Below, in pieces: positions 38,713 to 40,261 of a DNA stretch of 64,000 nucleotides. The notes under the pieces were generated by a model. That model had not been told where the DNA came from. It saw nothing but the letters and a program-made list of their open reading frames with translations, and ran no database searches. The position numbers and the translations under genes were made by a program. How positions within the stretch are numbered: position 1 is the first letter of the stretch; the number at the start of each line of letters is the position of its first letter. This stretch comes from Escherichia phage vB_EcoP_PW8: the sequence record PQ362703.1; one strand, written 5' to 3'.

Positions 38713-39045
38713 ATGACCGAAGTAATTCCCAATGATATGAACACTCAGCTAATCCTGATTGCAGGATTCTCAGCGAGTGGTAAATCAGCATCACTGCGTA
38801 ACATCCGGAACCAGGAACGCTGGCTCTATCTGAATACTGAAGCAGGTAAACGTCTGCCTTTCCGTAACAAATTCAATACCTACAACATTGAAGACCCATA
38901 CCAGATTTGGGAAGCATTTGATGTTGCATCTCCTGGTGGAGAAATGGCAGATGATGTTGATGGTATCATTATTGACTCAGCAACCTTTATGATGGACATG
39001 CTGGAATCTCAGTATGTATTACCCTCTGCAAACACGCAAAAGGCT
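38713..39045 (+). CDS. P-loop ATPase (AAA_24/Sak4-like, tentative), exon 1
   Basis: Walker A (GFSASGKSA) and Walker B-like IIIDSATF. Proposed 5' splice site after U at 39045. Confidence 0.45.
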
Positions 39046-39817
39046 TAACTACTAAGGCCCGTTAGTCAGTAATGATTAACGATAACTGATTGAATTCAGG
39101 GAAACCCCTAACGTAAAGACGAGGGCAATCCTGAGCCAAGACTTAATCTTTCTCCGGTTTTTATTAACGGAGTTACAAACATGAGTAAGAAAAGATTCGG
39201 TAATGAATTACATCCTCTGTATTACACATGGTTAACCATTAAACAGAGATGCGATAACCCTAAGCACGCTAGTTACAAAAACTATGGGGCTAGGGGGATA
39301 ACTAGAGCAGAAGAGTTCTCTGACTTCAAAGTGTTTGCTGCCTATCTAGAATCATTAGATGGTTACGCAGACAGGGAGAGACTGGGTCTTACTTTAGATA
39401 GAATAGATGGTTCACTTGGCTATGTGCCAGGAAATCTGAGATGGGCAACTAGAACAACTCAGGCCATTAATTCCAGAAAAAGAAGAACCAGTAAAGCTAC
39501 CTACTTAGGTATAGGTTTAAACACCACTAAGAAAAAATGGTCAGCAAGAATCTGCAATGGTAATGAAAGAATCTTTGTAGGTAATTTTGATTCCGAGATT
39601 GAAGCTCTGGAAGCTAGAAATGCCTACATTATTGAGCATGGATTACCTCATGCCATTCAAAAGATTAAGTAAGGTGCAACGACTATCCAGTAATGGAGTA
39701 GGGCAGAAGCTAATGCTGCTCGAAGCGGTCAGCATCCTATCGTAATTAACGAGGATGAAGATATAGTCTGGACTGCATGGAAACATGCAGATGCAGGTAA
39801 TGCTGCTGGGAGTGTAG
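39046..39817 (+). mobile_element. group I intron carrying an HNH homing endonuclease gene
   Basis: P (39083-39097 GAATTCAGGGAAACC), Q (39117-39128 CAATCCTGAGCC, pairs with P), R (39673-39688 GGTGCAACGACTATCC), S (39757-39771 GAAGATATAGTCTGG). Exon GGCU can pair with intron GGCC at 39055-39058. Intron ends in G at 39817. Confidence 0.6.
39181..39672 (+). CDS. intron-encoded HNH homing endonuclease
   Basis: 163 aa with GGAG RBS. YYTWLTIKQRC...YKNYGARGI...GNLRWAT pattern, located between Q and R of the intron. Confidence 0.75.
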   Translation: MSKKRFGNELHPLYYTWLTIKQRCDNPKHASYKNYGARGITRAEEFSDFKVFAAYLESLDGYADRERLGLTLDRIDGSLGYVPGNLRWATRTTQAINSRKRRTSKATYLGIGLNTTKKKWSARICNGNERIFVGNFDSEIEALEARNAYIIEHGLPHAIQKIK

Positions 39818-40261
39818 TTGCGTACGCTCTTGAACGTATCGTGGGGGGATTTTGCACAGTTCTTTAAGATACTGCTGCAACAGAAAGTCGTTAAGTTTGG
39901 TAAGCCAGTAATCATTACTGCTCATGCTAAAGACGAACTGGATGAAGCTGCTGGTGTGATGAAAACATTCATCCCAGTGAAAGGTTCCCTTAAGAATAAC
40001 GGACTTGAAGCCTACTTCTCTACAGTGGTTTACGCAGAACGTGTAGACATCAAAGAACTGGAGAAGTACGGAAACAAGATGTTAGAAATTACGGAAGAAG
40101 AACGTGACTTAGGATATAAGCACGTATTCCAGACCCGTCCAACCAAGAAGTCTGTTGGTAAACGACTTCGTTCCCCTATGGGTATGTTCGATAAGTCCGA
40201 GACTTACATTGATAACGATGCCCAGAAACTATTAGACCATCTGGCTGAATACTACGCTTAA
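39818..40261 (+). CDS. P-loop ATPase, exon 2
   Basis: Frame opens at 39818 just after an in-frame TAG. Exact junction not resolved. Confidence 0.45.
   Translation: MRTLLNVSWGDFAQFFKILLQQKVVKFGKPVIITAHAKDELDEAAGVMKTFIPVKGSLKNNGLEAYFSTVVYAERVDIKELEKYGNKMLEITEEERDLGYKHVFQTRPTKKSVGKRLRSPMGMFDKSETYIDNDAQKLLDHLAEYYA

Follow-up and report, generated by a model that had tools for sequence, protein, structure and literature searches.

Positions 39046-39841 of the window, the 64,000-nt stretch of Escherichia phage vB_EcoP_PW8 (PQ362703.1) that was analysed, very probably constitute a mobile phage group I intron, of type IA2, within a Sak4-like gene. The analysis establishes that the gene is precisely interrupted, that the ribozyme structure is conserved and covarying and that the distribution is patchy; splicing, endonuclease activity and homing are inferred. 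A sequence-only reading of this DNA had proposed that a group I intron carrying an endonuclease gene interrupts a P-loop ATPase gene, and Rfam, covariation and the Pfam family AAA_24 all bear this out. The interrupted gene spans exactly the interval given in that reading (38713-40261, + strand) and is composed as follows.

38713-39045, + strand: exon 1 of the Sak4-like ATPase gene (N4 gp44-type, AAA_24), codons 1-111; from alignment with intron-less pSb-1 gp91, the ORF list and Pfam
39046-39841, + strand: group I intron, 796 nt, IA2-like; from the pSb-1 junction, Rfam RF00028 and covariation
39181-39672, + strand: intron ORF, 163 aa; PacI-like nuclease domain of the His-Me finger type, then an AP2 DNA-binding domain
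39842-40261, + strand: exon 2 of the Sak4-like gene, codons 112-250, first codons UGG GGG GAU (W-G-D); from homologue alignment

The host gene encodes a Sak4-like recombination ATPase, the N4 gp44 homologue of a Gamaleyavirus (G7C/N4-like coliphage). Its homologues carry the annotation 'Sak4-like ssDNA annealing protein', and the spliced protein scores 43.2 bits against Pfam AAA_24 (cut-off 27). Exon 1 encodes the Walker A motif (GFSASGKS, residues 18-25) and ends with GCU (Ala111). The intron starts with UAACUA and its last base is G39841; in unspliced RNA the reading of exon 1 ends at the in-frame TAA at 39046-39048. Comparison with intron-less relatives had been suggested as a check, and it gave a clear answer: gp91 of phage pSb-1 aligns to both flanks of the 796-nt insert and corresponds to both exons as one gene. 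Removal of the intron joins GCU to UGG and yields a 250-aa product with 99.6% identity to pSb-1 gp91, and precise removal restores a colinear ORF in 10 other copies as well. The uninterrupted site of pSb-1 reads AAGGCG|TGGGGT. An intein was discarded as a reading, because the in-frame TAA stops translation directly after exon 1.

When Rfam was searched in E-value mode, the family Intron_gpI (RF00028) matched over 39036-39790 with 47.5 bits (E 9.2e-11), which is 2.5 bits below its gathering score of 50; a gathering-mode scan of the whole window returned two tRNAs only and no intron match. The sub-threshold score is due to the 492-nt ORF in P6a, with the model misplacing P6 and P8, and homologous introns score 32-45 bits. 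The following ribozyme elements were assigned.

39042-39059, + strand: P1; exon GGCU plus intron U (39042-39046) pairs with AGGCC (39055-39059); helix 1, three compensatory pairs
39060-39081, + strand: P2, 9-bp hairpin with GUAA loop; helix 2, compensatory change in 7 of the 8 counted pairs
39086-39092, + strand: P3 5' strand, CUGAUUG, partner 39726-39732; helix 3, 100% paired, U-A to C-G in four sequences
39096-39134, + strand: P4, enclosing P5/P5a (39106-39125); the earlier elements P and Q
39136-39151, + strand: P6/P6a 5' strand, partner 39660-39674; helices 6-7
39152-39172, + strand: hairpin CUCCG...CGGAG, whose 3' strand is the Shine-Dalgarno of the intron ORF (GGAG, 39169-39172)
39660-39674, + strand: P6a/P6 3' strand (AAAGAUUAAGU..GG); from covariation and per-sequence folds
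39681-39686, + strand: P7 5' strand, GACUAU, within the earlier element R, pairing with AUAGUC (39763-39768); helix 8
39687-39721, + strand: P7.1 (39687-39696) and P7.2 (39701-39721), between P7 and the P3 3' strand, subgroup IA type; helices 9-10
39726-39732, + strand: P3 3' strand, CGGUCAG; helix 3
39733-39757, + strand: P8 hairpin; helix 11, three compensatory pairs
39757-39771, + strand: the earlier element S (GAAGAUAUAGUCUGG), i.e. J8/7 and the P7 3' strand (39763-39768); from Rfam and covariation
39773-39831, + strand: P9 (39773-39790, GAAA loop), P9.1 (39793-39806) and P9.2 (39808-39831); helices 12-13

Four core elements had been named beforehand. P (GAATTCAGGGAAACC) and Q (CAATCCTGAGCC) exist and form P4, but their coordinates were 10 off and are 39093-39107 and 39127-39138, while R (39673-39688) and S (39757-39771) were placed correctly 3' of the ORF. 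The exon GGCU (39042-39045) does pair with an intron GGCC, which lies at 39056-39059 and not, as given, at 39055-39058. P4 consists of UCAGGG (39096-39101) and UCCUGA (39129-39134) and does not vary among the 10 sequences compared; P5/P5a folds into a hairpin in all homologues despite differing sequences. As the P6/P6a strands pair 39136-39151 with 39660-39674, the entire endonuclease ORF forms the loop of P6a, and its final codons and stop codon double as the P6a 3' strand. Compensatory changes were found in all eight pairs of P6a, in two of three pairs of P7.1 and in five of six pairs of P7.2. P7 is fully paired (100%), one sequence (L010) having two compensatory pairs in it, and P9.2 is retained in all homologues. 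In the Michel-Westhof classification, subgroup IA2 is marked by two additional hairpins, P7.1 and P7.2, that separate P7 from the P3 3' strand; here both are present and both covary. Two positions distinguish the window copy: in P2, C39080 forms G-C instead of the G.U of the three closest relatives, and G39826 forms U.G in place of the U-A of relatives.

The covariation set comprised 10 divergent copies from N4-like phages, all at the same site and with the ORF removed. In 13 helices with 70 base pairs, 98% of cells were paired, compared to 32-40% in slid-partner controls, and 40 of the 70 pairs showed compensatory changes; none of 500 shuffles came up to the observed values. MAFFT misregistered P5/P5a and P9.2 in some sequences, and most such pairs were excluded from the count; these elements were assessed instead by folding every sequence separately, which revealed P5, P6a and P9.2 in each sequence's own register. 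The P3-P4-P6 and P7-P3-P8 core with its P3/P7 pseudoknot is thus backed by covariation. All 10 sequences have the U.G pair at the 5' splice site (U39045.G39056), and the terminal G is kept in all 11 copies inspected. A further locus (L014) matched the P3-P4 motif; it contains no interrupted gene and was dropped.

The intron ORF has the beta-beta-alpha metal fold of His-Me finger nucleases (beta 71-74, beta 86-89, alpha 91-97, with D73-R74, Y81, N85 and N97) and, at about residues 105-155, an AP2 domain with a three-stranded sheet on a helix and AP2/ERF sequence similarity. It had been described as an HNH gene. The nuclease fold agrees with this, but the first beta strand ends without the catalytic His, Arg74 aligning with the His of I-HmuI VDH, and no family was found in Pfam and NCBIfam at E up to 0.1, HNH and HNH_3 included. 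PHROG matches were restricted to families labelled 'HNH endonuclease' or 'restriction endonuclease', and phmmer against the PDB gave a weak AP2 match only. R74, Y81, N85 and N97 are invariant across 37 diverse homologues, Y81 being located in the inter-strand loop, and the best structural match is PacI in a comparison of whole folds. Differences between copies of the ORF fall almost all at third codon positions, and on these sequence grounds it is a selected reading frame. Lacking both the canonical catalytic His and a characterised relative, it is a putative endonuclease. A stem equivalent to the Shine-Dalgarno hairpin, with differing sequences, was found in eight homologues, and there too it covers the Shine-Dalgarno.

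At least 14 further contigs of N4-like phages carry the same intron and ORF at this site; their exon proteins show 50-98% identity to those of the window or of intron-less pSb-1, and the spliced products of the N4-like copies are all in frame. The intron thus sits at one site (Ala|Trp-Gly) throughout a subfamily of N4-like phages, and this single site provides the clean covariation support. Among the Gamaleyaviruses of the collection it is carried besides the window by three phages only (SP5M, PhAPEC7 and Bas96; 5 of 55 records). In comparison with these three, identity amounts to about 99% (98.8-99.4%) in the ribozyme parts and 95.5-98.6% in the ORF, but to 91-94% in the flanking exons; the exon flanks of the window are pSb-1-like right to the junction. 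Patchy presence, a ribozyme more alike than the exons and the pSb-1-like flanks are signs of mobility. Between distant pairs ribozyme identity also exceeds exon identity (e.g. 79% vs 56% for L007), but the ribozyme is itself constrained, so this comparison is no test of horizontal transfer.

Several observations could point to a splicing ribozyme whose ORF is no active homing endonuclease, maybe a DNA-binding or maturase-like protein, in an intron inherited mostly vertically: the exchange of the catalytic His for Arg together with the missing Pfam HNH match, the single site over a whole phage subfamily, and the truncated ORF of PhAPEC7, in which a TGG codon has become the stop codon TAG at the equivalent of position 39443 of the window, where the ORF is intact. 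We consider this unlikely. PacI, a His-less His-Me finger (group 20), cuts DNA by a Tyr in the inter-strand loop (PMC5714182), and in the present ORF this loop holds the invariant Y81, with PacI as the best match in structure. The few carriers among Gamaleyaviruses and the ribozyme identity above that of the exons also speak against this reading, and Vibrio phage 1.097.O has a free-standing homologue of the ORF next to the target gene, which is uninterrupted there, as is the case for mobile free-standing endonuclease genes. Read as a homing endonuclease, the ORF may, as a tentative assignment, represent an uncharacterised class, in which a PacI-like His-Me finger lacking the catalytic His (Arg74, Tyr81) is combined with AP2 and which is both intron-borne and free-standing. 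If true, this pairing would offer a natural system for the union of an endonuclease gene with a group I intron.

An insert that splices no longer, leaving the Sak4-like gene as two polypeptides, that of exon 2 translated from a new start within the insert, has a precedent in the same phage group, the g39 insert of the G7C-like phage 10Gb (bioRxiv 10.1101/542787). An in-frame TTG at 39818, 5 nt past GGAG (39809-39812), indeed starts a 147-aa ORF spanning exon 2. This GGAG-TTG, however, falls in the P9.2 stem, whose sequence varies in every homologue, and the precedent insert has no Rfam match, whereas the present one scores 47.5 bits. All core helices are maintained by compensatory change over 10 lineages, so selection on the RNA fold is needed, and the invariant splice-site U.G pair and terminal G speak against a loss of splicing, which we therefore regard as very improbable.

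It had also been proposed that the intron arose by spread within the genome, from or to a first intron at 17225-18092 (intron 1). Both start with UAACUA, carry an ORF in P6, share GAUAUAGUCUGG and reside in P-loop ATPase genes; S and the element at 18001-18014 (TTGATATAGTCTGG) have 12 of 12 bases in common (GATATAGTCTGG), and the exact string GATATAGTCT is limited within the window to S and intron 1. The core elements are common to both introns, as had been noted, yet they are near-universal among phage group I introns: the P, Q, R and S elements match the Rfam consensus GAUAUAGUCu and are also found in T4 nrdD, phiKZ, rV5-like and Staphylococcus phage introns. The ribozyme cores of the two introns are only 52-56% identical, with a lone 26-nt BLAST match, whereas introns of unrelated phages (Pseudoalteromonas, Staphylococcus, rV5-like) are nearer to the present intron than intron 1 is (74% across 95% of the 3' half, 77-83% across the 5' half). 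Nor do the two endonucleases share a family (PHROG 374 vs PHROG 59; BLASTP 27% over 66 aa, E 0.033), and the distributions among relatives are disjoint: intron 1 is confined to pSb-1, where the present intron is missing, while SP5M, PhAPEC7 and Bas96 carry the latter without intron 1. The present intron moreover occupies this site in distant N4-like phages too, an old and wide distribution. Judged by these comparisons it does not appear to be a copy of intron 1, and spread within the genome, which is not supported, is barely credible. The window phage unites two independently acquired introns, a combination absent from all its relatives in the collection.

For the mobile group I intron we propose the following course of events. 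Transcription would run through the intron, and the RNA would fold into the P1-P9.2 core. A guanosine cofactor would attack after U39045, which P1 presents as the wobble partner of G39056, and the freed exon end would next attack after the terminal G39841. The ligated mRNA (...CAAAAGGCU-UGGGGGGAU...) should then give the full 250-aa ATPase; the expected splice junction in cDNA is CAAAAGGCT-TGGGGGGAT and the expected junction peptide ...ANTQKAWGDFAQFFK... The hairpin over the ribosome-binding site of the ORF probably shields ribozyme folding from translation. During mixed infection the endonuclease would be expected to cut intron-less alleles, and repair from the intron copy would result in homing.

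The intron is already known from the annotation of PhAPEC7 and Bas96 and is a real but ordinary mobile element. In gene 48 of PhAPEC7 (NC_024790), the N4 gp44 homologue, gene, insertion site and ORF are all the same as in the window; GenBank joins both exons in PhAPEC7 ('putative intron') and Bas96 (PQ850623), and the intron is unannotated in SP5M. A literature search for a Sak4, PhAPEC7 or Gamaleyavirus intron found no description. Compared to these three carriers the window phage is a distinct Gamaleyavirus, with at most 94% identity to any phage of the collection over 16 kb, and it has both introns. Its three ORFs (111, 163 and 147 aa) are better annotated as one spliced Sak4-like gene and an intron endonuclease.

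[quoted passage not shown] Both inserts are likewise about 800 bp long, carry an endonuclease and interrupt essential genes; they reside in other genes and have no Rfam match, whereas the present intron shows a near-threshold Rfam score and strong covariation. The ORF differs from the I-HmuI/HNH_3 type, which has the catalytic His, by its invariant Arg and by falling below Pfam HNH/HNH_3, and from PacI as a monomer-sized, AP2-bearing and intron-borne putative nuclease. In IA2 introns of the T4 td/I-TevI type an ORF is looped out from P6a and its ribosome-binding site is buried; P7.1/P7.2 are present, the 5' site is U.G and the last base is G. The phage IA2 introns, among them T4 td, T4 nrdD, Bacillus beta22 td and Staphylococcus Twort/K, and the window intron are alike in all these features. 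Sequence similarity to the window intron extends over P7-P9 in T4 nrdD and many phage introns and over P2-P5 in Staphylococcus phage introns. T4 td encodes the GIY-YIG enzyme I-TevI, whereas the window intron has a PacI-like His-Me finger with AP2 and a Sak4-like ATPase as host gene. The intron is thus a textbook mobile group I intron that poses no challenge to current understanding, to which it adds modestly by the two-intron combination, the covariation at one site, the unusual endonuclease active site and the free-standing homologue.

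A comparison with intron-less relatives had been proposed as a check on the group I intron predicted from the sequence alone. Alignment with gp91, the uninterrupted Sak4-like (N4 gp44, AAA_24) ATPase gene of the Gamaleyavirus pSb-1, delimited a 796-nt insert in the window (intron 2); about 50 Gamaleyavirus records carry this gene uninterrupted. Group I rules place the 5′ splice site after U39045 and make G39841 the last intron base, giving the ligated junction GCU/UGG (Ala111-Trp112). The predicted spliced product of 250 aa is 99.6% identical to pSb-1 gp91 and matches Pfam AAA_24 with 43.2 bits (cut-off 27), while in unspliced RNA a TAA at 39046-39048 directly ends the exon 1 frame. 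At the DNA level, GGC and GTGG of the pSb-1 sequence may alternatively be taken as the flanks of the insert; with splicing shifted one base to the right, GCG would become the synonymous GCU. In L010, a Logan contig (SRR29257533, ~2305 and ~3165), the intron lies one nt downstream (GCGU/...G/GGGGUG) in codon phase 1 and the product is also in frame after splicing; in each of the ten remaining copies examined it lies in phase 0.

Features of the window in and around intron 2 (neighbouring genes from the ORF list)
36446-38656: N4 gp43-type primase, upstream of the interrupted gene
38713-39045 and 39842-40261: exons of the Sak4-like gene
39046-39841: intron 2
39152-39172: Shine-Dalgarno hairpin, Shine-Dalgarno always the 3′ strand; equivalents in the homologous loci L007-L010, L012, L015 and L018
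39181-39672: intron ORF, 163 aa
Downstream of the interrupted gene: single-strand DNA-binding protein and a 184-aa ORF
43680-43752 and 43761-43834, plus strand: two neighbouring tRNA genes (Rfam, 40.7 and 64.8 bits)

All core strings quoted in the sequence-only reading occur in the window and pair as claimed. R (39673-39688) and S (39757-39771) were placed correctly, while P (39093-39107) and Q (39127-39138) had been set 10 nt and the intron GGCC (39056-39059) 1 nt too low. An Rfam scan of the whole window at gathering thresholds returned the two tRNAs only and no intron match. In an E-value-mode scan of 38900-39950, Intron_gpI matched 39036-39790 with 47.5 bits (E 9.2e-11), short of the gathering score of 50 because the model has no place for the 492-nt ORF and assigns P6 and P8 wrongly. 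Homologous loci were collected from contigs of intron-ORF homologues and by an IMG/VR scan with the P3-P4 motif. At least 14 further N4-like phage contigs have an intron at this position of the gene, its ORF homologous to that of intron 2, with the primase upstream and exon proteins 50-98% identical to those of the window or of intron-less pSb-1; among contigs with flank retrieved that far, two have a virion RNA polymerase gene nearby. The P3-P4 motif GATTGAATTCAGGGRAAMC was also found in L016 (IMG/VR 3300014973_000024, 4182-6681, minus strand), within an insert that interrupts a gene for a T7-like DNA polymerase and carries a 182-aa ORF of the endonuclease VII-type HNH class. The ribozyme subfamily therefore moves in company with more than one type of endonuclease and in more than one host gene.

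For covariation analysis ten distinct intron copies were aligned with MAFFT after removal of the ORFs, and pairs were counted for a structure written from the window sequence. It comprises 70 pairs in 13 helices (P1, P2, P3, P4, P5, P6, P6a, P7, P7.1, P7.2, P8, P9, P9.1), with standard pairs in 98.0% of the cells and two-sided changes in 40 of the 70 pairs. None of 500 shuffles reached any observed measure, and when the 3′ partners were shifted by 1-3 columns, pairing fell to 32-40% and the number of compensatory pairs to 7-15. Covariation is heavy in P2, P6a, P7.2, P9 and P9.1; P7 has two double changes, both in L010, P4 is uninformative because it is invariant, and the splice-site U.G pair does not vary across the alignment. 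Equivalents of the P5/P5a and P9.2 hairpins formed in every sequence folded separately, the MAFFT register being off in some rows. The four near-identical Gamaleyavirus copies differ at three ribozyme positions, two inside P2 and P9.2 (G.U to G-C, U-A to U.G) and one at 39836, in SP5M only, outside the assigned helices. With the hairpins P7.1 and P7.2 separating P7 from P3′ and the ORF carried in the P6a loop, we take the architecture to be IA2-like in the scheme of Michel and Westhof; the 3′ strand of P6a (39660-39670) consists of the last ORF codons and the stop codon.

Among the Gamaleyaviruses in the collection intron 2 is restricted to the N4-like coliphages SP5M, PhAPEC7 and Bas96 (5 of 55 records), which are 94-95% identical to the intron 2 region over its full length. 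Identity is about 99% (98.8-99.4%) in the ribozyme parts, 95.5-98.6% in the ORF and 89.5-94% in the flanking exons and adjoining genes; over a 16-kb stretch, identity to any phage in the collection is at most 94%. The window's exons share about 96% identity with members of the genus that lack intron 2, pSb-1 and St11Ph5 among them, and the exon sequences beside the intron (38946-39045, 39842-39941) are pSb-1-like, unlike those of the other intron-bearing phages, up to about 5 nt from the junctions. This pattern fits a recent acquisition with almost no co-conversion; if intron 2 came by homing, the co-conversion tract would have been extremely short.

The intron ORF has no match in Pfam or NCBIfam. 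Matches were obtained to PHROG families carrying the label 'HNH endonuclease' or 'restriction endonuclease' (best 2.6e-39). The encoded protein is a putative endonuclease. R23, Y32, Y35, G36, G39, R74, Y81, N85, Q94 and N97 are invariant in 37 diverse homologues, and the profile of their alignment weakly matches the HNH motif of I-HmuI (E 0.043), LDR-ID...NLRW...Q..N being aligned with VDH-KD...NLRW...N..N. Unlike I-HmuI, the ORF therefore has an invariant Arg where the general-base His of VDH is expected. Confident AlphaFold models, of the whole protein (pLDDT 93.7) and of the N-domain by itself (91.2), contain beta strands 71-74 and 86-89 and helix 91-97. The designation as an HNH gene is apt for the beta-beta-alpha fold superfamily and not for the motif. 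In PacI, the known example of a His-Me finger enzyme without the His, a Tyr of the inter-strand loop substitutes for this residue (PMC5714182); the invariant Y81 of the intron ORF is located in the corresponding loop. That the endonuclease is inactive and the intron now immobile is unlikely in view of this parallel and of the patchy, highly conserved distribution of intron 2. Nearly all ORF differences between copies fall on third codon positions and thus indicate purifying selection. In PhAPEC7 a TGG to TAG change at the equivalent of 39443 cuts the ORF to 87 aa, consistent with the short annotated CDS. The ribozyme is intact despite this, a pattern typical of endonuclease decay after fixation. 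A free-standing homologue (45% identical) is present in Vibrio phage 1.097.O (MG592470; positions 2501-2974 of locus L011), where it overlaps an uninterrupted Sak4-like gene at the 3′ end of that gene. The insertion site of the gene reads AAGGCT/TGGGGCGAT, the same sequence as the ligated exons of phages with the intron, and a group I signal was not detected at this locus.

A non-splicing insert, with both halves of the Sak4-like gene translated separately, has a precedent in the same genus (bioRxiv 10.1101/542787), and an in-frame TTG 5 nt beyond a GGGAG (39808-39820) opens a 147-aa ORF covering exon 2. These elements are part of the P9.2 stem, which has a different sequence in each homologue, so the start is probably fortuitous; as covariation speaks for a working ribozyme, we consider a non-splicing insert very improbable.

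The other intron of the window (intron 1) is an 868-nt insert at 17225-18092 in an N4 gp24-type ATPase gene (alignment with intron-less St11Ph5; junctions CCU/UAAC...AACG/UAGUGG; Rfam 25.6 bits). The sole other phage with it is pSb-1 (NC_023589, 33744-35664), where the region is annotated as gp62, HNH gp63, reverse-strand gp64 and 'ATPase' gp65 with no intron marked. The likeness of S to 18001-18014 (TTGATATAGTCTGG, GATATAGTCTGG being common to both) was confirmed and both ORFs combine a nuclease with AP2, but the proposed spread of one family within the genome is scarcely credible: the letters common to both S elements are those of the Rfam consensus and lie in the only BLAST match (26 nt), without their ORFs the cores are 52% identical in the 5′ part and 56% in the 3′ part, introns of unrelated phages are closer to intron 2 (a terminase intron of a Pseudoalteromonas phage, 74% over 95% of the 3′ half; Staphylococcus phage introns, 77-83% to the 5′ half), the ORFs belong to separate PHROGs (27% identity over 66 aa, E 0.033), and the distributions are disjoint, intron 2 occurring only in relatives without intron 1. 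We conclude that the window phage acquired its two introns independently.

Intron 2 is an already annotated example of a well-known type of element: the GenBank record of PhAPEC7 joins the exons with the note 'putative intron', and that of Bas96 also joins them. A literature search found no paper describing intron 2 and no splicing data. Some freshness lies only in the endonuclease active site and the free-standing Vibrio phage homologue.

The GGAG of the ORF ribosome-binding site (39169-39172) forms the 3′ strand of the hairpin 39152-39172, and eight homologues have an equivalent stem of different sequence covering their own Shine-Dalgarno. This suggests conserved translational repression of the intron ORF. 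In the T4 td intron translation of I-TevI is delayed, which the buried Shine-Dalgarno of the intron 2 ORF recalls.
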